In this document: positions 27,509 to 51,203 of the stretch, piece after piece
Layout of the letters: each line of letters starts with the position of its first letter
How positions within the stretch are numbered: position 1 is the first letter of the stretch
Assembly (NCBI GenBank): GCA_052144335.1
Contig: JBKQQP010000053.1
Location: forward strand, 62,818-126,817
DNA from: Syntrophales bacterium
GTDB taxonomy: Bacteria; Desulfobacterota; Syntrophia; Syntrophales; UBA2185
DNA length: 64,000 nucleotides
Direction of reading: 5' to 3'
Program-made: the position numbers and the translations under genes
The notes under the pieces: model-generated
Databases searched by the model: none
What the model saw: only the letters and a program-made list of their open reading frames with translations
Told to the model about the DNA's origin: nothing

Positions 27509-27536
27509 GAAAAAAATTCCCGCCTCGCGGGAATTT
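27509..27536 (-). terminator. rho-independent terminator after the methyltransferase gene
   Basis: Stem AATTCCCGC (27515-27523) / GCGGGAATT (27527-27535) with a 3-nt loop. The A-run at 27510-27516 is a U-run on the minus strand. Confidence 0.6.
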
Positions 27537-28839: not shown

Positions 28840-29769
28840 ATGAATATGAAGATAATCGTTTCCGGGTCTCTGGCATACGACAGGATTATGGATTTCCCGG
28901 GACACTTTTCGGATCACATCCTTCCCGGGAAGATCCACGTCTTGAATGTCTGCTTCCAGGTTAACGGCATGAGGGAGAAATTCGGCGGCACGGCAGGAAA
29001 TATTGCCTACGCTCTGTCTCTCGTAGGCGAAAAGCCGATCATATCCGCCGCTATCGGTCATGATCATCACAGGTACTTCGACTGGATGGCGAAGAACGGG
29101 ATCCCCACAGACGACATCAAAATCATAAAAGATGAATTCACGGCATGCGCCTACATAACTACCGACCTTGCCGACAACCAGATCACCGGCTTCAACCCCG
29201 GCGCCATGAAATATTCTTCATCTCTCGATTTCGACAAGCTCAACTCTGAGGATACTATCGCCATCATCTCTCCCGGCAATCTCGAAGACATGGTAAACTA
29301 TCCGCGCATCTGTAAAGAAAGAGGAATCGGCTACATCTTTGATCCCGGACAATCTCTGCCCGTGCTCAATGCCCCGGATGTTGCAGACGCCATAGACGGG
29401 TGCCGGATCCTGATATCCAATGATTATGAATTGGACCTGATCACGAAGAAGACCGCTTTAGACAGGAATGATTTGATACGGCGGGCCGGGACTGTCATTG
29501 TCACCTTAGGGGAGAAGGGTTCGCAGGTTCTCACGGCGGGCGGCGAAATAAATATCCCTGCCATTAAGCCGAGGAAGGTCGAAGACCCGACAGGCGCCGG
29601 CGATGCATACAGGGGCGGGCTGATAAGCGGACTGATCAAAGGCAAGGATATCGAAGAGTGCGCCAGGATGGGGAGCGTATGCGCCTCTTTTGCGGTGGAG
29701 AGTTATGGAACGCAGGACTACAGGTTCGGCCCTGAGGAATTCGAGGAGAGACTCAACAGATCATTGTGA
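28840..29769 (+). CDS. PfkB-family carbohydrate/nucleoside kinase
   Basis: 309 aa with the C-terminal signature DPTGAGDAYRGGLI. The start is 28840 or 28846. Confidence 0.8.
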   Translation: MNMKIIVSGSLAYDRIMDFPGHFSDHILPGKIHVLNVCFQVNGMREKFGGTAGNIAYALSLVGEKPIISAAIGHDHHRYFDWMAKNGIPTDDIKIIKDEFTACAYITTDLADNQITGFNPGAMKYSSSLDFDKLNSEDTIAIISPGNLEDMVNYPRICKERGIGYIFDPGQSLPVLNAPDVADAIDGCRILISNDYELDLITKKTALDRNDLIRRAGTVIVTLGEKGSQVLTAGGEINIPAIKPRKVEDPTGAGDAYRGGLISGLIKGKDIEECARMGSVCASFAVESYGTQDYRFGPEEFEERLNRSL

Positions 29770-40407: not shown

Positions 40408-41178
40408 ATGGAAGAGCCTGTAGAAGAAAGAATGCCTTTCACCGCTCATCTGGAAGAATTACGGACCAGAATCATCCGTATAGTGATTGCAGTTTGTGTG
40501 GGTTTCGGCGTCTGTTGGTTTCTTAGGGAATGGCTTTTCCAGATCATTACAAGGCCTCTGTACCAGGTCCTGCCCCCGAACAGCTTTATGATATATACAA
40601 GCCTGCCGGAGGCTTTTTTCAACTACATGAAAATATCTTTCTACGCATCCCTCTTTCTTACAAGTCCCTACATACTTTATCAACTGTGGAAATTCATCTC
40701 ACCTGGTCTCTATAAGTCAGAGAGAAAATACATGCTTCCCTTCGTTATCTCTTCCACGATTCTGTTCATCTGCGGTATACTGTTCGGATATTATCTTGCC
40801 CTTCCTCCCGCATTCAGCTTCTTTGTGGAATTTTCGTCAGACTTTCTCAAGCCCATGTTTTCACTGCGCGAATATCTTTCACTCTCCCTGAAGCTCCTGC
40901 TGGCATTTGGTGTGTCATTCGAACTACCTGTTGTCATCTTCTTCTTAGCCAAAATCGGCATCGTCAGTTCAAAAATGTTGTCGCGAAATAGGCGATATGC
41001 AATCCTTATAATATTCATCGCTGCTGCCATCCTTACGCCTTCTCCCGATGCTCTCACCCAGATTATCATGGCTGTGCCCTTGATAGGTCTTTATGAGATT
41101 GGTATAATTGTGGCGAAATTTGCCGAAAAAAAACGCCCTAAAGCAGAAGATTTGAAAGACGATCAAAAGGAAATATGA
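40408..41178 (+). CDS. tatC: twin-arginine translocase subunit TatC
   Basis: 256 aa with MPFTAHLEELRTRIIR and six hydrophobic helices. Confidence 0.9.
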   Translation: MEEPVEERMPFTAHLEELRTRIIRIVIAVCVGFGVCWFLREWLFQIITRPLYQVLPPNSFMIYTSLPEAFFNYMKISFYASLFLTSPYILYQLWKFISPGLYKSERKYMLPFVISSTILFICGILFGYYLALPPAFSFFVEFSSDFLKPMFSLREYLSLSLKLLLAFGVSFELPVVIFFLAKIGIVSSKMLSRNRRYAILIIFIAAAILTPSPDALTQIIMAVPLIGLYEIGIIVAKFAEKKRPKAEDLKDDQKEI

Positions 41179-43217
41179 GATTTAAAGACAAAAAAAGGAA
41201 ACCAAAACGCTCCCGCCTGGGCACAGTACTGTTGGTAGTCACACTATGCTTTGTCATTCTGACGATTATAGTAAGCAGTATCTTGTACTATGTCCTCCAA
41301 CAGGAATTGCCCAGTATTGCTGCCTTAAAGGACTACCGTCCCAGCATCGCCACGCGCGTGTACGCAGACAATAATGAACTAATCGATGAGTTTTTTATGG
41401 AAGATAGAAAAATCATTAGGTTGTCCGAAGTTCCAAAGGTGGTCATTCAGGCCTTTGTGGCTGCGGAAGATGCAAGATTTTATCAACATACTGGCTTCGA
41501 TTTGGTGAGTATGACAAGGGCTTTTTATAAAAATATCGAAGCCGGTCACATAGTTCAGGGGGGCAGCACCATAACGCAGCAGGTGGCTAAATCACTCTAT
41601 CTGTCTTCGGAAAAAAGCTACATGAGAAAAATCAAGGAGGCCATCCTGGCCTATAAGATTGACAGGTATCTTTCGAAAGACGAAATTATGAACTTATACC
41701 TAAACCACATATATTTGGGGCACGGCACTTACGGCATCGAGGCAGCATCACAAGGGTATTTTGGAAAAAGTGCCAGGCATCTGACCCTAGCGGAAGCCTC
41801 ACTCCTGGCCGGTCTTCCCAAGGCGCCCAGCAGCTATTCTCCTTTCTTCCATCTCGACCGCGCCCGCCAGAGACAGGCCTACGTACTTGAAAGGATGGTT
41901 GAAGATGAGTACATCACCACGGCAGAGAAAGAGCGAGCCCTTGCAGCGCCCATAATCCTCAAATCCATCAGGCCTAAAGAAAAGATTGCCCCTTATTTTG
42001 TGGAGAACATCCGGAAATACATTATGGAAAAATACGGGAGCGATGTACTTTACAGGGAAGGTCTTGAAGTCTATACGACCCTTAACATAGAAATGCAGAA
42101 AGCGGCACGGGACGCAGTGGAAAAGGGACTTCAAGAATTGGAGGAGCGGGAGAAGTATGAGAAAGGACTCGTTCAGGGTGCTCTTCTTTGCATGGAGGTG
42201 AAGACAGGCGCTATCACGGCTATGGTCGGAGGCAGGGATTTCAAGAAGAGTGAATTCAACCGCGCCACCCAGTCGCGAAGGCAGCCTGGATCGGCATTTA
42301 AGCCATTTATCTACACAGCCGCCTTCGACAAGGGAATGACGCCATCAACACGCATACTGGACGCTCCCATTGTCTTTGAAGATAAGTCATCTCCTGATGG
42401 TTTCTGGAAACCAAGAAACTTTGACGGAAAATTCAATGGGCCCACGACTCTTAGAAACGCCCTCGTGCAGTCGCGAAATATCATTACTATAAAGATCCTC
42501 CAGGAGATCGGCGTCGATTATGCCGCCTCATATGCCACGAATATGGGGATTACTTCTCCCCTCTCCAAGAATCTCTCCTTGGCTCTGGGGACGTCAGGCG
42601 TAACCCTTCAGGAAATGGTTAGGGGATATGGCGTCCTGGCAAATCAGGGTAAACGAGTCGTGCCTTTCTTCATCAAGAAGATCGTTGATCGAACGGGTCA
42701 TATCTTTGAAGAAGCCCAAGTAAAAAGTGAAGAGGTCATCGACCCCCGGATAGCGTTCATGACATCATATGTTATGCAGGATGTCGTGGAAAGCGGGACG
42801 GGGAGACGAGTTAAGAGCATCGGCAGGCCTGTTGCAGGTAAGACGGGAACGACAGATGACACGAGAGATGCCTGGTTCATAGGCTTTACACCGTCTCTGG
42901 TGGCAGGGGTATGGGTTGGGTTTGACCAGGAAACCTCTCTCGGTAGAGAAGAAGTGGGGGGCAGGGCAGCAGCGCCCATATGGCTCTATTTCATGGAAAA
43001 AGCCCTACAAAACAGGGCCAGGGAAGTTTTTCCCGTCCCGGACGGGATTGTCTTCATCAAGGTGGACCCTCACACAGGCATTCCCGCTACACGGTCGACC
43101 CAGGACGCCATATTCGAGAGTTTTCTTGAGGGTACAACAGGGACTCGTGCAGTACCCATAGAGATCAAGGAAACGCAGGATGAGATAGACAGGCGCGATA
43201 AGGACAATTCCCGTTAA
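41175..43217 (+). CDS. mrcA: class A penicillin-binding protein (PBP1A; glycosyltransferase + transpeptidase)
   Basis: 680 aa with GT51 motifs EDARFYQHTGFD and GGSTITQQVAK, and transpeptidase motifs SAFKPF, SRN and KTGTT. Confidence 0.9.
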   Translation: MRFKDKKRKPKRSRLGTVLLVVTLCFVILTIIVSSILYYVLQQELPSIAALKDYRPSIATRVYADNNELIDEFFMEDRKIIRLSEVPKVVIQAFVAAEDARFYQHTGFDLVSMTRAFYKNIEAGHIVQGGSTITQQVAKSLYLSSEKSYMRKIKEAILAYKIDRYLSKDEIMNLYLNHIYLGHGTYGIEAASQGYFGKSARHLTLAEASLLAGLPKAPSSYSPFFHLDRARQRQAYVLERMVEDEYITTAEKERALAAPIILKSIRPKEKIAPYFVENIRKYIMEKYGSDVLYREGLEVYTTLNIEMQKAARDAVEKGLQELEEREKYEKGLVQGALLCMEVKTGAITAMVGGRDFKKSEFNRATQSRRQPGSAFKPFIYTAAFDKGMTPSTRILDAPIVFEDKSSPDGFWKPRNFDGKFNGPTTLRNALVQSRNIITIKILQEIGVDYAASYATNMGITSPLSKNLSLALGTSGVTLQEMVRGYGVLANQGKRVVPFFIKKIVDRTGHIFEEAQVKSEEVIDPRIAFMTSYVMQDVVESGTGRRVKSIGRPVAGKTGTTDDTRDAWFIGFTPSLVAGVWVGFDQETSLGREEVGGRAAAPIWLYFMEKALQNRAREVFPVPDGIVFIKVDPHTGIPATRSTQDAIFESFLEGTTGTRAVPIEIKETQDEIDRRDKDNSR

Positions 43218-43296: not shown

Positions 43297-43386
43297 ATGA
43301 CCTCTTACAGCCTGAGCATCAATCTCCCTATCGTAGCCGTAGTAGTAGTATCTGTACTTCGGGGGACCGCTGCTCGGTTTCTGTGA
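43297..43386 (+). CDS. Val-rich leader peptide of ilvBN-1 (attenuator)
   Basis: atg..tga encodes MTSYSLSINLPIVAVVVVSVLRGTAARFL (29 aa; 6 Val, including four consecutive GTA codons). It lies 20 nt upstream of a strong terminator and 127 nt upstream of ilvB. Confidence 0.6.
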   Translation: MTSYSLSINLPIVAVVVVSVLRGTAARFL

Positions 43387-43406
43387 TGGAATGACATAGA
43401 ACTTAG

Positions 43407-43439
43407 AGCCGCGGGCCCCGATGACCCGCGGCTTTTTTA
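43407..43439 (+). terminator. attenuator terminator upstream of ilvBN-1
   Basis: 9-bp GC-rich stem AGCCGCGGG (43407-43415) / CCCGCGGCT (43425-43433) followed by a T-run to 43438. Confidence 0.7.
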
Positions 43440-43512
43440 TGCCTTACAGGCCGCTGCACAGATGAACTGGCGGCTTTTCTATTTTCTAAACAGCAAGGAG
43501 CACGTAGCAAAT

Positions 43513-45186
43513 ATGGGAACCATTGGCGCAGAAATAGTTATACAAATCTTAAGGGAGGAGGGAGTCGATGTAGTCTTTGGATACCCGGGGGCGAACACCC
43601 TACCCCTTCATGACCGGTTGATAAACAGCCAGATCCGCCATTACCTCATGCGGCACGAACAGGGTGCAGCTCATGCGGCTGATGGCTACGCTCGCGCTAC
43701 GGGAAAGGTAGGCGTCTGCATCGCCACGTCCGGGCCCGGTGCTACCAACCTGGTGACAGGGATTGCCACGGCCTTTATGGACTCAACGCCCATGGTCGCC
43801 CTTACTGCACAGGTTAGCACGAGCCTCCTCGGGCATGACGCCTTCCAGGAGACGGACATCATCGGGATAACCTTGCCTATCACAAAACACAGTTACCAGG
43901 TGCATGATGTGAATAATCTCGGGGCAACGCTGAGGCAGGCATTTGAACTCGCCAAGACGGGCAGGCCAGGTCCGGTCTTAGTGGATATCCCCCGCGATGT
44001 TCTGTCGTCGAAATGCCCCCTCGCAGAAAAGAAAGCTACCACTGCGCTGAGGACGAACTACAAGACTGAAGAAGATCGTGAACAACTGGAGATGATCGCC
44101 AAGACATTGAATCAGAGTGAAAGGCCCATCCTCATTATCGGAGGAGGAGTCAAACTTAGTAATGCCTTTCGTCTGATACGCGAGCTGATCGAAAAGGCGA
44201 AGATCCCCTTCGTTACAACAATGATGGGCATTGGTTCCGTTGACTCCGTCAATGGCTACAACCTGGGGTTGATAGGAACGCACGGTAATGAACTTGCGAA
44301 CCGGATGGTACATCAGTGCGATTTTATCCTAGCTATAGGTACACGCTTCTCAGACCGCAGTACAGCACTTATTGAAGAATTCGCGCCCCTGGCAAAAATT
44401 GCCCAGATAGATATCGACCCTACTTCGATCGGAAAGAGCATCAAGATTAATCTACCTTATGTGGGGGATATTCGCGATGCGCTGACGGCCTTGCTGCCTC
44501 TGATAGATGCAAAGGAAAAGTCGGAGTGGCTTCAAAGAATACAGTCTGAGCGTGACGCCATCAACGGAAAAGTCGCGGACACGGGATGCGGACCGGCAGG
44601 AGATTTCATCCGGATGGTACAGAATGCCATGCCCGTCGAAACAACGGTGACTGCGGATGTGGGATTGAATCAGATATGGACAGTGCGCACATGGCAGGCA
44701 CGAAGCCCGCGCAGTCTCATCACCAGCGGCGGCATGGGTACAATGGGATTCAGCCTGCCTGCAGCCATCGGCGCTAAGGTCGGCACTCCGGAGAGGGCAG
44801 TCGTAGCTATCACAGGCGACGGAGGATTCTACATGAACATCCAGGAACTGGCCACTGTTAGCTACTACAATTTACCAATAAAGATCGTAGTTATCAATAA
44901 CGGCCATCTGGGGATGATCCGCCAGATTCAGGACCTTTTTTACAATGCCCGTTTTAACACCATTGATTTGGGGAGCAAGGTTGATTTTGTAACTGTTGCC
45001 CGGGGCTTCGGCATCCCGGGGAGCAGAATTGCCGTAGATAAAGACCCGAAAGCCGGCATTGAAGCTATGGTAAAGGCCGACGGCCCGTATCTTCTGGAAG
45101 CCATTGTTGATCCGGAAAACTATGTCTATCCCATCATACCGCCGGGATGTTCGAATATCGAAATGATGTACGATAGACTTGACTGA
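43513..45186 (+). CDS. ilvB: acetolactate synthase large subunit, copy 1
   Basis: MGTIGAEIVIQILREEGVDVVFGYPGA...RHEQGAAHAADGYARATGKVGVCIATSGPGATNLVTG...; ThDP motif GDGGFYMNIQELAT...NNG. The start at 43513 follows AAGGAG (43495-43500). The ORF-track start is 43462. Confidence 0.9.
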   Translation: MGTIGAEIVIQILREEGVDVVFGYPGANTLPLHDRLINSQIRHYLMRHEQGAAHAADGYARATGKVGVCIATSGPGATNLVTGIATAFMDSTPMVALTAQVSTSLLGHDAFQETDIIGITLPITKHSYQVHDVNNLGATLRQAFELAKTGRPGPVLVDIPRDVLSSKCPLAEKKATTALRTNYKTEEDREQLEMIAKTLNQSERPILIIGGGVKLSNAFRLIRELIEKAKIPFVTTMMGIGSVDSVNGYNLGLIGTHGNELANRMVHQCDFILAIGTRFSDRSTALIEEFAPLAKIAQIDIDPTSIGKSIKINLPYVGDIRDALTALLPLIDAKEKSEWLQRIQSERDAINGKVADTGCGPAGDFIRMVQNAMPVETTVTADVGLNQIWTVRTWQARSPRSLITSGGMGTMGFSLPAAIGAKVGTPERAVVAITGDGGFYMNIQELATVSYYNLPIKIVVINNGHLGMIRQIQDLFYNARFNTIDLGSKVDFVTVARGFGIPGSRIAVDKDPKAGIEAMVKADGPYLLEAIVDPENYVYPIIPPGCSNIEMMYDRLD

Positions 45187-45209: not shown

Positions 45210-45722
45210 ATGTTAAGAAAAGCACGCGAAAAGGAACAGACCGTTTCCATTCTGGTAAACAATCAGCCGGGTGTGCTGTCCCGTGTGGGAGGCGTATTTG
45301 GCCGACATGGATACAACATCAAAAGCCTTTGCGTAGCGGAAACGACGAACCCAGATGTTTCGAGAATCACGCTGACCAGCGAATCGGATCCTGACTTTAC
45401 TGAAAAGATAAAAAAACAACTGGACAAGCTTGTAGATGTAATCGATGTCTCCGATGTCTCAGGACAGTCCTACATTCAGAGAGAATTAATGTTGATCGGC
45501 GTCAATGTCAAAGAGGGAGCCTATCAAGAAATCCTGCGGGCGATTGAAGTGTTAGGCTGCAGAATCGTCACCATGACACCGGATTATTTCATCCTGGAAT
45601 TGACGGGTCAGCCGGATGAAACGGCCGCATTCCTGAAATTCTTTCAATCATTCGGCGTAGAGGAAATAAATAGAACTGGCCTAATCGCCCTGCAAAGAAC
45701 CAGGCCCAAGAGAAAAGTCTAG
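45210..45722 (+). CDS. ilvN: acetolactate synthase small (regulatory) subunit, copy 1
   Basis: 170 aa with an ACT domain, VSILVNNQPGVLSRVGGVFGRHGYNIKSLCVAETTNPDVSRITL. Confidence 0.9.
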   Translation: MLRKAREKEQTVSILVNNQPGVLSRVGGVFGRHGYNIKSLCVAETTNPDVSRITLTSESDPDFTEKIKKQLDKLVDVIDVSDVSGQSYIQRELMLIGVNVKEGAYQEILRAIEVLGCRIVTMTPDYFILELTGQPDETAAFLKFFQSFGVEEINRTGLIALQRTRPKRKV

Positions 45723-45797
45723 AACAATTACAAAAATATTCTTGACAATACTATGGGAGGCTGTTAAGAAGGTCCCATAGTGAGGATTGATAACGAC

Positions 45798-45875
45798 ATG
45801 CACGCGCTTACCATCGCAAACATCATCATAATTATTATCGGCGTAATCATTCCCTTCCATAGGGAGGCTGGATGA
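45798..45875 (+). CDS. Ile-rich leader peptide of ilvBN-2 (attenuator)
   Basis: Encodes MHALTIANIIIIIIGVIIPFHREAG (25 aa; 9 Ile, with six consecutive). GAGGA lies 11 nt upstream and a terminator lies 35 nt downstream. Confidence 0.65.
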   Translation: MHALTIANIIIIIIGVIIPFHREAG

Positions 45876-45910
45876 TGGTTTGCGTTTAGCACATAGTTCG
45901 CAGTTAAAAG

Positions 45911-45943
45911 ACCGTTACCAGCCAAAGGTAACGGTTTTTTTTT
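45911..45943 (+). terminator. attenuator terminator upstream of ilvBN-2
   Basis: Stem ACCGTTACC (45911-45919) / GGTAACGGT (45927-45935) with a 7-nt loop, followed by a run of 9 T. Confidence 0.7.
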
Positions 45944-46047
45944 GGAGAAATATCCCTACAGGTATTAAGCAGGGAAGGATCCCATCCTCGACGCCATAAT
46001 GTCGCGGGGCGCTGACGGCGGGATTTTAAACAAGGGGGTAGAGAAAA

Positions 46048-47736
46048 GTGAAGTTAACAGGAGCGCAAGTCCTTTTTGAGGCCTTGCAAAAGGAGGATGT
46101 CGATACGATCTTTGGGTTTCCCGGTGGAGCCGTTCTCGATATATTTGATGAACTGTACAGAAGAAAGATTAAAAATATTTTAGTCCGGCATGAACAGGGT
46201 GCCATACACGCAGCCGACGGATACGCGAGGGTTTCTGGCAAGGTTGGCGTATGCCTAGTCACGTCCGGGCCGGGAGCTACAAACACGGTAACTGGCATTG
46301 CCAATGCTTTCATGGATTCCATCCCCGTCGTCGTACTTACAGGTCAGGTGGCAACCTCTTTGATTGGCGGCGACGCCTTTCAGGAAGTGGACATCACCGG
46401 TATTACAAGACCATGCACGAAGCATAATTTTCTGGTTAGGCGGATTGACGACCTGGGACGCATCGTCAGGGAGGCCTTTGACATCGCCCGCTCAGGACGC
46501 CCCGGTCCTGTTCTTATCGATATTCCCAAGGATATCACTAGATCCTTTATAGAAGATTCTGATGTATCCTGGACATCAAGCCTCCCTAATAATAACAAGA
46601 AGACTTCTATCGAAGATGCATGCATTAAAGCACTTGACATGATCAGGAAGGCAGAAAGACCGCTTATCATCTCAGGCGGCGGCGTACTGCTCGGCCGGGC
46701 CTGGGACGAGTTGAGAACATTTGTGAAAATGCTCAACGTGCCCATCACCTCGACCCTTATGGGGCTCGGGGCCTTCCCCGCATCCGATCCACATTGGCTC
46801 GGTATGCCGGGTATGCATGGCACGTATTACGCCAATATGGCAATCACTAATTGCGACCTTTTGATCGCCCTGGGCGTCCGTTTTGATGATCGGGTCACGT
46901 CGAAGCTTGACGCCTTTGCGCCCCATGCTAAGGTCCTTCACATCGATATTGACCCTGCGTCCATCGATAAATTTATAAAGACGCACCTGTCGATAGCAAG
47001 CGATTGCAAGCCCGTATTGCAACTACTCAATAAGTGGATTTCGGATAAGAGTTTTGCAATCACCGGGAAGCAAACAAAGGCATGGCTCGAGCAAATTCAG
47101 AAGTGGAAAGCGTTCGCACCCATGACGTACTGTCAGTCTGATAAAATCAAGCCTCAATACGTCGTGGAAACACTTTATCGCCTCACGGAAGGAAAAGCGA
47201 TCATCTCGACAGAAGTGGGGCAGAACCAGATGTGGGCGGCCCAGTTCTACCATTTCGATTACCCCAATTCATTCATTACATCGGGCGGCCTGGGAACAAT
47301 GGGTTATGGATTCCCGGCTGCCATCGGTGCGCAGGTTGCCCGCCCTGACAACGTTGTCGTAGATATTGCCGGAGATGGAAGCATCCAGATGAACATACAG
47401 GAGCTCGCAACGGCTGTTAATTATAGCCTTCCCGTTAAGATAGTCATCCTCAATAACGGCTTCTTAGGCATGGTTCGCCAATGGCAGGAACTCTTCTACG
47501 GGAAGCGTTATTCCCACAGCAATATATCCAATGTGCCTGACTTTGTGAAGCTGGCCGAAGCTTATGGCGCTGTTGGCCTACGGGCGACACGCCATGAAGA
47601 GGTGGAGGCCACCTTAAGGAAAGGCCTCGATACTGCAAAGACCGTCGTGATGGATTTCCATGTTGAACCTGAGGAGGGCGTATATCCCATGGTTTCACCG
47701 GGTGCGGCGATCTCAGATATGGTCTTGAGCAAATAG
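46048..47736 (+). CDS. ilvB: acetolactate synthase large subunit, copy 2
   Basis: 562 aa with a GTG start. Motifs include MKLTGAQVLFEALQKEDVDTIFGFPGGAVL...RHEQGAIHAADGYARVSGKVGVCLVTSGPGATNTVTG and GDGSIQMNIQELAT. Confidence 0.9.
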   Translation: MKLTGAQVLFEALQKEDVDTIFGFPGGAVLDIFDELYRRKIKNILVRHEQGAIHAADGYARVSGKVGVCLVTSGPGATNTVTGIANAFMDSIPVVVLTGQVATSLIGGDAFQEVDITGITRPCTKHNFLVRRIDDLGRIVREAFDIARSGRPGPVLIDIPKDITRSFIEDSDVSWTSSLPNNNKKTSIEDACIKALDMIRKAERPLIISGGGVLLGRAWDELRTFVKMLNVPITSTLMGLGAFPASDPHWLGMPGMHGTYYANMAITNCDLLIALGVRFDDRVTSKLDAFAPHAKVLHIDIDPASIDKFIKTHLSIASDCKPVLQLLNKWISDKSFAITGKQTKAWLEQIQKWKAFAPMTYCQSDKIKPQYVVETLYRLTEGKAIISTEVGQNQMWAAQFYHFDYPNSFITSGGLGTMGYGFPAAIGAQVARPDNVVVDIAGDGSIQMNIQELATAVNYSLPVKIVILNNGFLGMVRQWQELFYGKRYSHSNISNVPDFVKLAEAYGAVGLRATRHEEVEATLRKGLDTAKTVVMDFHVEPEEGVYPMVSPGAAISDMVLSK

Positions 47737-47780
47737 GATATACTAGAATATATCAAATTCATTGTGAGGTGAATGAGCTT

Positions 47781-48266
47781 ATGGAAGTAAAAGAGAATAC
47801 CATTTCCATCTTGGTAAATAACAGGCCCGACGTTCTGGCCAGAATCGCGGGCACCTTTAGTGGCCGTGGCTTCAACATCGAAAGCATCTCCGCAAATATC
47901 ACGAGAAATCCTGAATTTACCAGAATCATTATTACTACTCTCGGTAACCGCGAGACCGTCATCAAACTTGAGAAGCAGCTGACAAAAATTATCGATGTCC
48001 TGGAAGTGAAGGATCTGACCCGCGCCAACGCGGCCTGCCGCGAAATGGTGCTGGTGAGGATGAAATTAAGCGATGTGAATCAGGTGAAAATCATGCAGAC
48101 TGTTGACACGCTTAAGTGGAAGATTGTAAAGATGGACGCTGACACCTGTATATTAGAGGTAACGGGCGGCAAAAAGGAAATCGACGACGCCCTTGCTCTT
48201 TTGGAAAAGATGGGTATGGATGACTTTACAAGAACCGGCGTTGTCGCTTTGGAGCGTCAGAAATAG
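47781..48266 (+). CDS. ilvN: acetolactate synthase small subunit, copy 2
   Basis: MEVKENTISILVNNRPDVLARIAGTFSGRGFNIESISANITRNPEFTRIIITT. The ATG at 47781 lies 8 nt after GAGGTG. The ORF track starts at a GTG at 47769. Confidence 0.85.
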   Translation: MEVKENTISILVNNRPDVLARIAGTFSGRGFNIESISANITRNPEFTRIIITTLGNRETVIKLEKQLTKIIDVLEVKDLTRANAACREMVLVRMKLSDVNQVKIMQTVDTLKWKIVKMDADTCILEVTGGKKEIDDALALLEKMGMDDFTRTGVVALERQK

Positions 48267-48342
48267 ATGCAAACTAGTTTTAGGAGCGGACACCACACAA
48301 TACTATAAATAATTTAATTCATAACAATAAGGAGGAGCTAAT

Positions 48343-49389
48343 ATGCCTAAAATCAACATTGGCGGGGTCATGGAAGAGGTTGTGACATCAGAGGAGTTTA
48401 CCCTCGAAAGGGCGCGCAAAGTGCTCAAGGATGAAACGGTTGCCGTGATAGGTTACGGCGTACAGGGACGCGGCCAGGCCTTAAACATGAGGGATAACGG
48501 AATCCGTTGTATAGTGGGTGAAGGCGACTTCAACTGGCAGAAGGCCATTGATGAAGGCTTCAAACCCGGCGAGACGCTTTTTCCACCCATAGAGGCTGCA
48601 AAACGCGGTACCATTATTCAGTACCTTATGTCAGATGCAGGCCAGAAGGCTATGTGGCCGGAACTCAAAACCCAGCTGACAAAAGGAAAGGCTCTCTATT
48701 TTTCTCATGGATTCTCTATCGTGTATAAAGATCAGACTGGCGTAATCCCCCCCTCTGACATCGATGTTATATTGGTAGCGCCAAAAGGTGCCGGCCGTAC
48801 CGTGCGCGACAATTTTCTTGCCGGAAGCGGCATTAATTCGAGTTACGCAGTTTTCCAAAACGCCACAGGCAAGGCACTGGAAAGAACTCTTGCCGTCGGC
48901 ATTGCCATAGGGTCGGGATATCTGTTCCCTACCACCTTTGAACAGGAAGTTTACAGCGACCTCACAGGGGAGCGCGGTGTCCTCATGGGTTGTCTCGCCG
49001 GTGTCCTGGAGGCGCAGTATAATATTCTTCGTAAGCATGGACACAGCCCCAGTGAAGCCTTCAATGAAACCGTCGAGGAACTGACCCAGAGCCTCATGCC
49101 GCTTGTCGCCCAAAATGGTATGGACTGGATGTATGCCAATTGCAGCACAACTGCCCAAAGAGGCGCTTTAGACTGGAAAAACAGATTCCGTGATGCTGTT
49201 GCACCCGTATTTGATGAACTGTATGACAGGGTGGCATCCGGCAAAGAAACTGCCATTGTCCTGGAAGTCAACTCCGCACCCGATTACAGGGAAAGACTGC
49301 AGAAAGAACTCGATACCATGAGAAACAGCGAAATGTGGCTGGCTGGCGCCGTGGTTCGTTCATTGAGACCAGAACGAAGAAAAAAGTAG
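48343..49389 (+). CDS. ilvC: ketol-acid reductoisomerase
   Basis: 348 aa with VIGYGVQGRGQALNMRDNG. An AAGGAGG SD is present. Confidence 0.95.
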   Translation: MPKINIGGVMEEVVTSEEFTLERARKVLKDETVAVIGYGVQGRGQALNMRDNGIRCIVGEGDFNWQKAIDEGFKPGETLFPPIEAAKRGTIIQYLMSDAGQKAMWPELKTQLTKGKALYFSHGFSIVYKDQTGVIPPSDIDVILVAPKGAGRTVRDNFLAGSGINSSYAVFQNATGKALERTLAVGIAIGSGYLFPTTFEQEVYSDLTGERGVLMGCLAGVLEAQYNILRKHGHSPSEAFNETVEELTQSLMPLVAQNGMDWMYANCSTTAQRGALDWKNRFRDAVAPVFDELYDRVASGKETAIVLEVNSAPDYRERLQKELDTMRNSEMWLAGAVVRSLRPERRKK

Positions 49390-49465
49390 GAAATGACTAA
49401 GCGGAGGAGTAGCAACATGCGACTGTATAACTTCCGCGCATTGCAAAAAATATAAGGAGGAAAAC

Positions 49466-51127
49466 ATGCGAAGCGACCTGATGAAAAAGGGGCTTGAACG
49501 GGCGCCCCACAGATCTCTTTTTAAAGCCATGGGGTATACGGATGAAGAAATTGTACAGCCTTTGATAGGCGTGGTGAATTCCGCCAATGAAATCATACCC
49601 GGCCATATTCATCTGGATCTCATAACTGAAGACGTAAAGGCAGGCATCCGCATGGCAGGCGGAACGCCGGTCGAATTCCCCGTCATCGGCGTTTGCGACG
49701 GGATTGCCATGGGACATACGGGCATGAAATACTCCCTTGCCAGCCGCGAGCTGATCGCCGATTCCATTGAAGTCATGGCAATTGCCCATCCCTTTGATGC
49801 CTTGGTCATGGTCCCCAACTGCGATAAGATCATTCCCGGAATGTTGATGGCGGCGCTTCGCCTCAACATTCCTACCATCTTCATCAGCGGCGGTCCCATG
49901 ATGGCAGGAACCCTGGAGGGCAAGACCGTTGATCTCATAAGCGTCTTCGAAGGTGTGGGGAAGGTAAAATCCCGCCAGATGAAAGAAGAGTATCTGAAGG
50001 CGCTGGAAGATTGCGCCTGCCCCGGTTGCGGGTCCTGCTCAGGGATGTACACGGCCAATTCCATGAACTGCGTAACCGAGGCTTTAGGCCTGGGCCTCCC
50101 CGGAAATGGCACCGTACCTGCCGTCAATGCGGCCCGACGGCGCCTGGCGAAGCAGGCCGGCATGAAGATCATGGAACTTCTCAAGAAAGATATTCGTCCG
50201 CGGAAGATCGCGACACTATCAGCCTTCAAGAATGCCATCGCCGTGGACATGGCACTGGGCTGCTCGACCAATACGGTCCTCCATATTCCCGCCATCGCCC
50301 ACGAAGCGGGAATTAAACTGGACCTCGACCTCTTTAATGAGATTAGCAAGAAAACGCCTAATCTCTGCAAGCTCAGCCCAGCAGGGCCGCACCACCTGGA
50401 AGACCTAGACATGGCAGGCGGAGTTCAGGCGGTGATGAAACAAATCAGTCAGCTCGGCGTCATCGATATGAAGTCCTTGACGGTCACGGGGAAAGTGGTG
50501 GGCGCAAACCTTAAAGGGGCTGCGGTGCTGAACAGCGACGTCATCCGGCCTCTTAGCAACCCCTATTCGAAAGAAGGGGGAATTGCCATCCTGAGGGGTA
50601 ATCTGGCCCCCGATGGCGCCGTCGTCAAGCAGTCCGCTGTGGCGGAAAGAATGCTCGTCAACGAAGGCAAGGCCCGCGTCTTTGACTCCGAGGACGATGC
50701 AATTGCCGCCATCCTCGGCGGTAAGATCAAACCGGGCGATATTGTCGTAATCCGCTATGAAGGTCCGAAAGGCGGTCCGGGCATGCGCGAGATGCTCGCT
50801 CCAACGTCGGTCATCGCCGGTATGGGCCTCGATACAACGGTGGCACTCCTGACTGACGGAAGATTCAGCGGCGGCACCCGGGGCGCGGCTATCGGACATA
50901 TCTCTCCCGAAGCTGCCGAAGGAGGGCCCATAGGTCTTGTCAGGGAAGGTGATATTATCGCCATCGACATACCGAAAAAAACAATCTCTCTCAATGTCAG
51001 TCCGGACGAATTGAAGAAAAGGCAGGCTAAGTTTAAACCGAGACCACCGGCAGTCAAAAGCGGTTACCTGGTACGGTATGCCGGACTTGTGACTTCCGCA
51101 AGCACAGGCGCCATTTTAAGAGACTGA
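49466..51127 (+). CDS. ilvD: dihydroxy-acid dehydratase
   Basis: 553 aa with [32 protein letters not shown] and [13 protein letters not shown]. Confidence 0.95.
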
Positions 51128-51164: not shown

Positions 51165-51203
51165 AAAAAGAGCGTCCATTTTATGCTGATGGACGCTCTT
51201 TTA
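51165..51203. terminator. bidirectional terminator between convergent ilvD and thioesterase genes
   Basis: 11-bp stem AGAGCGTCCAT (51169-51179) / ATGGACGCTCT (51189-51199), with an A-run before and a T-run after. Confidence 0.7.

Follow-up and report, generated by a model that had tools for sequence, protein, structure and literature searches.

A predicted isoleucine-specific leader-peptide attenuator upstream of the second ilvBN copy in a Syntrophales-like bacterium

The second acetohydroxyacid synthase (AHAS) gene pair of the bacterium analyzed here is preceded by an isoleucine-rich leader that very probably acts as a ribosome-mediated transcription attenuator, which would sense charged tRNA-Ile and gate transcription from a promoter, P2, into ilvB2-ilvN2-ilvC-ilvD. 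The Ile leader lies in a stretch of 64,000 nucleotides (the window) and combines a Shine-Dalgarno (SD) sequence and short ORF, a cluster of codons for the end product, a terminator, an antiterminator that excludes it, and a region 1 that overlaps the codons. An isoleucine-specific attenuator had been proposed at this place in an original prediction, which is supported in silico by the antiterminator, by a region 1 that overlaps the Ile codons, by a leader stop codon within region 2, and by eight conserved leaders. The Ile leader would be a new example of a long-known mechanism, well supported in silico, and leaves the general understanding of attenuation unchanged. With it, leader-peptide attenuation of the classical kind reaches uncultured Thermodesulfobacteriota (Syntrophales-like), the host being a bacterium of sulfate-reducer type known from a MAG. 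Features are collected in Table 1, in which gene identities are from NCBIfam, those of ilvB2, ilvN2, ilvC and ilvD being equivalog matches above cutoff.

Table 1. Positions of the Ile leader, its structural regions and neighboring features in the window.
Feature	Position	Strand	Remarks
tatC	40408-41178		TatC; NCBIfam
PBP1A gene	41175-43217		PBP1A; NCBIfam
Val-rich leader element	43297-43438	+	upstream of ilvB1N1
Val leader ORF	43297-43386		MTSYSLSINLPIVAVVVVSVLRGTAARFL, then stop; six GUA codons
Val leader terminator	43407-15 / 43425-33		AGCCGCGGG / CCCGCGGCT, then T6
ilvB1	43462-45186 (longest ORF)		AHAS large subunit; NCBIfam
ilvN1	45210-45722		AHAS small subunit; NCBIfam
-35 hexamer of P2	45742-45747	+	TTGACA; CTTGACA invariant in 8/8 orthologous leaders
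Extended -10 of P2	TG 45762-63, hexamer 45765-70	+	hexamer TAAGAA; 17 nt after -35
SD of leader ORF	45782-45786	+	GAGGA; 11 nt before ATG 45798
Leader ORF	45798-45875	+	MHALTIANIIIIIIGVIIPFHREAG; 25 codons + TGA; ATG start; read directly
Ile codons of leader ORF	45813-15, 45822-39, 45846-51	+	from sequence
Region 1	45815-45827	+	predicted anti-antiterminator 5' strand; overlaps start of Ile run
Small hairpin	45850-45866	+	UUCCCU/AGGGAG; between Ile codons and region 2
Region 2	45866-45884	+	predicted to pair with region 1 or region 3; holds leader stop TGA 45873-75
Region 3	45906-45923	+	45906-19, terminator 5' arm; 45909-23, antiterminator partner
Terminator core stem	45911-45919 / 45927-45935		ACCGTTACC / GGTAACGGT, then T9 at 45935-45943
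Region 4	45927-45943	+	terminator 3' arm 45927-40 and T9 45935-43
ilvB2	46048-47736	+	AHAS large subunit; GTG start
ilvN2	47769-48266	+	AHAS small subunit
ilvC	48343-49389	+	ketol-acid reductoisomerase
ilvD	49466-51127	+	dihydroxy-acid dehydratase
Perfect 14-bp inverted repeat	51166-51202		AAAAGAGCGTCCAT-N9-ATGGACGCTCTTTT; between ilvD and convergent hotdog-fold thioesterase gene

The leader ORF, 172 nt before ilvB2, is essentially Ile-only. Nine of its 25 codons specify Ile, six of them consecutively (45822-45839), against one Val and one Leu, and eight of the Ile residues fall inside a single 10-residue stretch. At the local Ile frequency of 8.3%, the binomial probability of at least nine Ile in 25 is ~1e-4, and the ORF ranks first for single-amino-acid enrichment among 569 short ATG ORFs taken from six frames of the whole window. 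With a distance of 11 nt, the SD stands rather far from the ATG; an AGGA-like motif stands ~5-13 nt before the leader ATG in 8/8 leaders. Reading of the sequence agreed with the elements called in the original prediction, namely the TTGACA, the GAGGA SD with its 25-codon ORF of nine Ile (six consecutive), the 9-bp stem with a run of nine T at 45911-45943, and the GTG of the second ilvB at 46048. The protein encoded there aligns with TIGR00118 starting at residue 3. In the public assembly, a 31-aa gene is annotated at window positions 45780-45875 (L161 2733-2828), which is the leader ORF extended upstream to GTG 45780. ATG 45798 is the better leader start, since GTG 45780 has no SD and lies at the presumed transcription start, and the annotation is corrected on this point.

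A dedicated promoter for the Ile leader is supported by the invariant CTTGACA and by a TG-extended -10 at fixed spacing; the motif TG(T/C)TA (TG-N-TA) is found at the same distance from the -35 in 8/8 loci. The -10 hexamer of P2 is weak, and P2 is not listed by a consensus promoter scan. Transcription from P2 would start near 45777.

Downstream of the ORF, the terminator stem is lengthened by A-U pairs from 9 to 14 bp (45906-19 / 45927-40), with a 7-nt loop and a predicted energy of -17.9 kcal/mol, and it ends ~105 nt before the ilvB2 start. Mutually exclusive structures were looked for by folding the leader, as had been proposed along with the original prediction, in which no antiterminator had been identified by eye. 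An antiterminator was found in which 45866-45881 pairs with 45909-45923 (15 bp, one bulged A, -20.6 kcal/mol). The antiterminator takes 45909-45919 of the terminator 5' arm (45906-45919) and continues into the terminator loop, and the energies of the two structures are comparable. A third predicted pairing, the anti-antiterminator, joins 45815-45827 to 45871-45884 (13 bp, one bulge), the folded 1:2 domain having -24.2 kcal/mol. The leader region folds better than 200/200 dinucleotide shuffles (z = -3.46). Modeled in this way, the Ile leader has the four-region layout that is classical in trp, his and ilv attenuators. The leader stop is placed inside region 2, so that a terminating ribosome would block region 2. 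Going by the geometry, the footprint of a ribosome halted at the final Ile codons (45846-51) would extend to ~45864-66 and end right before region 2. The small hairpin between the Ile codons and region 2 is possibly a pause hairpin; a CCC.../...GGG hairpin is predicted at the matching place in at least 7/8 orthologues and drops out of the masked fold of one of them (L006).

To imitate folding during transcription, the RNA was also folded in a form truncated ahead of the terminator 3' arm; its minimum-free-energy structure is the antiterminator, with or without a ribosome mask. Equilibrium folds of the full-length leader, even ribosome-masked, contain no antiterminator and always favor the terminator, so the switch would have to be kinetic. 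Classical attenuators switch kinetically.

The course of events inferred from this layout, from initiation through stalling of the ribosome to termination or read-through, and its physiological logic are as follows. RNA polymerase starting near 45777 would transcribe the 25-codon leader ORF. With Ile-tRNA plentiful, the ribosome would reach UGA 45873-75 and sit on region 2 (45866-84); with region 2 covered, the region 3:4 terminator (45906-40) with its nine U would form, and transcription would stop ~105 nt before ilvB2. In the absence of translation, region 1 (45815-27) would pair with region 2, again leading to termination. With Ile-tRNA scarce, the ribosome would stall on the Ile codons at 45822-39 and 45846-51, covering region 1 and leaving region 2 free; the free region 2 would pair with 45909-23 as it emerges, take most of the terminator 5' arm and permit read-through.

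To collect relatives, the IlvB2 protein was used as the query in a scan of GTDB genomes and JGI metagenomes, which gave 160 loci. Orthologous Ile-type leaders lie upstream of an ilvB2-type gene in 7/160, all Thermodesulfobacteriota, and the closest relatives of the window are labelled Deltaproteobacteria, Thermodesulfobacteriota or Syntrophales. The nearest locus, L081, with an IlvB2 93% identical to that of the window, encodes the leader peptide MDAFSIANIVIIIIGIIIPFHRGAG; the other six encode ...TIAIIIGIIIPFHMGAG (L001), ...IANIAIIIIIGIIIPFRTGAG (L002), ...IAIISGIIIPYDIGVG (L005), ...IAIIGIIIPFRRGGVMV (L006), ...TIAIIIGIIIIPDIEGAG (L083) and ...KIISIVIIIDIIILVSTGAG (L084). These orthologous leaders have 6-10 Ile codons each and a common tail, ...GIIIPF(H/R)xGAG and stop. 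Ile codon usage over the eight leaders (ATC 31, ATT 24, ATA 12) and synonymous changes between loci indicate that the constraint is on codon meaning. Comparative genomics of the leader, also proposed with the original prediction, found the Ile run, the promoter and the three pairings kept in the seven other loci. Every relative with this terminator has an Ile-rich ORF, so that the pattern named beforehand as evidence against the attenuator, a terminator kept by close relatives that lack the leader ORF, was not encountered.

Terminator, antiterminator and 1:2 pairing are predicted in 8/8 leaders. Standard pairs make up 95.8% of the antiterminator cells and 96.4% of the terminator cells in the alignment of the eight sequences. 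At two pairs of the antiterminator both partners differ between sequences, one of these pairs (C68-G21 to U-A in L005) being within the terminator loop. Antiterminator covariation is not significant, the observed score being reached by 34/500 shuffles; it is weak because the RNA is very conserved and the sequences number only eight. The TGATGGT of region 2 is invariant in 8/8 leaders, and the leader stop of L006, placed two codons later, is still within region 2.

The genes from ilvB2 to ilvD (46048-51127, plus strand) are separated by short intergenic gaps and form an operon behind the Ile leader, probably closed by a bidirectional terminator at the 51166-51202 repeat. A Val-rich leader precedes ilvB1N1 on the same strand. 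It has its own antiterminator, with the strand GGGGACCGCUGCUC, and is built likewise, which suggests that leader-peptide attenuation is used by this organism. The Val leader stands upstream of ilvB1 in 7/7 two-copy loci (the window, L001, L002, L006, L081, L083 and L084), and all seven share the order Val leader, ilvB1N1, Ile leader, ilvB2N2. Single-copy relatives (e.g. L003, L004, L086, L087 and L104) have only Val-type leader RNA, directly before an ilvB2-type ilvBN-ilvC-ilvD. Whether the Val-type and Ile-type leaders share an ancestor was considered; layout and length match, and alignment identity is too low to call homology.

The window holds no terminator between ilvN1 (stop 45722) and P2, and for this reason transcripts that escape the Val attenuator would also meet the Ile terminator. 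In the proposed scheme ilvB1N1 would respond to Val and ilvB2N2CD to Ile, and the arrangement yields a prediction of the pathway branch that each AHAS serves. It offers a clean natural case of candidate Val-only and Ile-only attenuators in series before two AHAS isozymes. One point stands against the scheme. Both ilvC and ilvD, needed also for Val and Leu synthesis, are placed behind an Ile-only gate, which would be odd unless basal read-through is enough.

How the pair arose is a matter for a tentative suggestion, to which we give a little less than even weight: one ancestral Val/Ile-rich ilv leader may have split into a Val-only attenuator before a divergent AHAS (ilvB1N1) and an Ile-only attenuator (ilvB2N2CD) in series, the Ile one doubling as conditional terminator of the first operon and each isozyme being tied to the end product that it mainly serves. 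If so, P1 transcripts would get as far as ilvCD only when Val and Ile are both short, and the switch in specificity could need nothing beyond first-position G-to-A transitions (GUN to AUH).

Among the alternatives, control in two layers fares best and is nevertheless unlikely. Here attenuation would be joined by a dimeric repressor with its operator in an inverted repeat over the promoter, the second, protein-based layer suggested in the original prediction. That prediction had described an 8-bp repeat after the TTGACA; the repeat is present, but its right arm (TCCCATAG, 45773-45780) ends at 45780 instead of 45779, and the arms are 14 nt apart instead of 13. It extends to a perfect 9 bp, ACTATGGGA (45750-58) and TCCCATAGT (45773-81) in the form ACTATGGGA-N14-TCCCATAGT, and with 45750-45781 spans the P2 -10 and the presumed transcription start. 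A perfect palindrome set exactly over the core promoter favors an operator, as does its rarity: perfect 9-bp inverted repeats with gaps of 3-25 nt occur ~6 times per 64 kb in shuffles, or ~0.03 times per 325 bp. The repeat is not conserved, however, even at 93% IlvB2 identity, which leaves the operator unsupported. In L081, the closest relative, it is broken (ATTATGGGA ... TCACTAAAGT) by one change in the left arm and three in the right, and its arm positions vary more than any others in a region of otherwise ~92% identity. The orthologous promoters of L001, L002, L005, L006, L083 and L084 do not have it. The -35 and TG-extended -10 around it, unlike the repeat, are invariant in 8/8 loci. A second copy of the motif was not found in the window, even with 3 mismatches, and no regulator gene adjoins it among the annotated neighbors. 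As judged from these sequences, the repeat is probably fortuitous or strain-specific. The chance-control scan also gave further perfect inverted repeats in the window, 9-11 bp long with arms a short distance apart, at 2290-2318, 27514-27536 and 28894-28931.

Less probable still is a constitutive terminator of ilvB1N1, formed by the hairpin and T-tract, with the Ile-rich ORF untranslated or incidental and the ilvB2 promoter located past the terminator. Since ilvN1 is followed by no other terminator, the hairpin does end P1 transcripts, and the ~105 nt after the T-tract in the window could hold a promoter. Most relatives, however, have just 36-54 nt from T-tract to start codon, and the promoter that is conserved precedes the leader. 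Across eight loci the Ile-rich ORF keeps its SD and its frame while its codons change synonymously, and a strong antiterminator is conserved. In L005 the Ile leader follows a pirin-family gene with no ilvB1N1 upstream, an arrangement which argues that the leader belongs to ilvB2 and not to the ilvN1 3' end.

T-boxes control ilv and leu operons in many bacteria. A ligand- or tRNA-binding riboswitch (T-box or metabolite) can nonetheless be dismissed as highly improbable here, since a scan of the whole window brought no Rfam family up to its gathering score, a sensitive local search gave only a weak Thr_leader match, the leader of ~165 nt is mostly ORF and terminator and leaves no room for a T-box, and what is conserved in region 1 is codon identity (Ile), not nucleotides.

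The match to Thr_leader (RF00506) scores 23.9 bits against a gathering score of 55 (E = 0.03). Among Rfam models, Thr_leader alone gives an end-to-end alignment with the Ile leader (model positions 1-118), the sensitive local scan otherwise giving chance miRNA and sRNA matches. The E. coli thr leader also contains Ile codons. Membership in the Thr_leader family was rejected, because the score is below the gathering score, a Thr run is missing from the Ile leader, and the operon downstream is a different one. No DNA similarity of the Ile leader to E. coli was detected at E <= 1 (blastn, word size 11, 5,426 E. coli genomes). With no Rfam family at threshold and no E. coli match, the Ile leader falls outside the curated families by sequence.

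By layout, several known systems are comparable. The E. coli ilvGMEDA leader (ilvL) likewise has a leader peptide, three alternative structures and an AHAS operon that also carries ilvD. The ilvL peptide ends ...VVIIIPPCGAALGRGKA, and this ending loosely recalls the ...GVIIPFHREAG found here, with an Ile run, Pro and then Gly/Ala. The E. coli leader is, however, multivalent (Ile, Val and Leu codons), whereas the leader described here is essentially Ile-only, has no DNA similarity to it and belongs to another phylum. One AHAS isozyme of E. coli, encoded by ilvBN, has a leader-peptide attenuator of its own, ivbL, which is rich in Val (and Leu) and whose counterpart is the Val-type leader at 43297-43438; the blastn comparison with E. 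coli genomes gave no DNA similarity between ivbL and the Ile leader. Whereas E. coli has its two AHAS operons unlinked, the Val-type and Ile-type attenuators here stand in series, 2.5 kb apart on one strand, and no terminator intervenes. Lopatovskaya et al. 2010 reportedly survey attenuators widely and may list ilv attenuators of Thermodesulfobacteriota. Our literature search returned no description of ilv leader-peptide attenuators for that phylum, and a paper on delta-proteobacterial regulons (PMC545781) does not mention ilv attenuators. The Corynebacterium ilvBNC leader, or ilvB-II motif, has been studied experimentally and comprises a short uORF with branched-chain codons, alternative hairpins and a terminator (PMC10272879, PMC11857589). 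It is likened to the Ile leader by layout; it is actinobacterial, with mixed Ile/Val/Leu codons, and is not known to stand in series with a second attenuator. In Staphylococcus aureus, a Leu-rich attenuator peptide controls the branched-chain amino-acid operon ilv-leu together with CodY (PMC5794164). That peptide is Leu-specific and acts with a protein regulator, while the leader described here is Ile-rich and a protein layer is not supported.

Other features of the locus bear on its annotation and its history. The spacer of ~105 nt between terminator and ilvB2 (45944-46047) is present only in the window and L081, the other relatives having 36-54 nt. A second regulatory RNA within it was considered and rejected, since the spacer of the window folds like shuffles (z = 0.17) and other relatives lack it; that of L081 folds somewhat better than shuffles (z = -2.0). 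A possible compensated hairpin in the spacer reads CGAC..GTCG in the window vs. CACCT..AGGTG in L081.

Directly after the Val-leader terminator lies a second terminator-like hairpin, GCCGC...GCGGCTTTT (43449-43486). It is kept in every Val-type leader examined, including those of single-copy relatives, and makes up tandem terminators with the first. The longest-ORF start of ilvB1, ATG 43462, falls within the loop of this hairpin. Sequence comparison places the true ilvB1 start probably at ATG 43513, because an SD (AAGGAG) lies at 43496-501, several homologues (L001, L083 and L084) align only from residue 17-18 onward, and the NCBIfam match begins at residue 22; this is a second, probable correction to the annotation.

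More distant, Desulfobacterales-type relatives (L007, L016, L019-L021, L027, L030, L033, L036, L038, L045, L092, L103, L106 and L110) have a different conserved leader-peptide family upstream of ilvB, with mixed Ile/Leu/Val runs and commonly an ending of ...GLIMA or GLVMx (e.g. MHKIIAIYNLISLILVLAGVLIICGEHPGLIMA). These mixed leaders make leader-peptide control of ilvB look widespread in the phylum.
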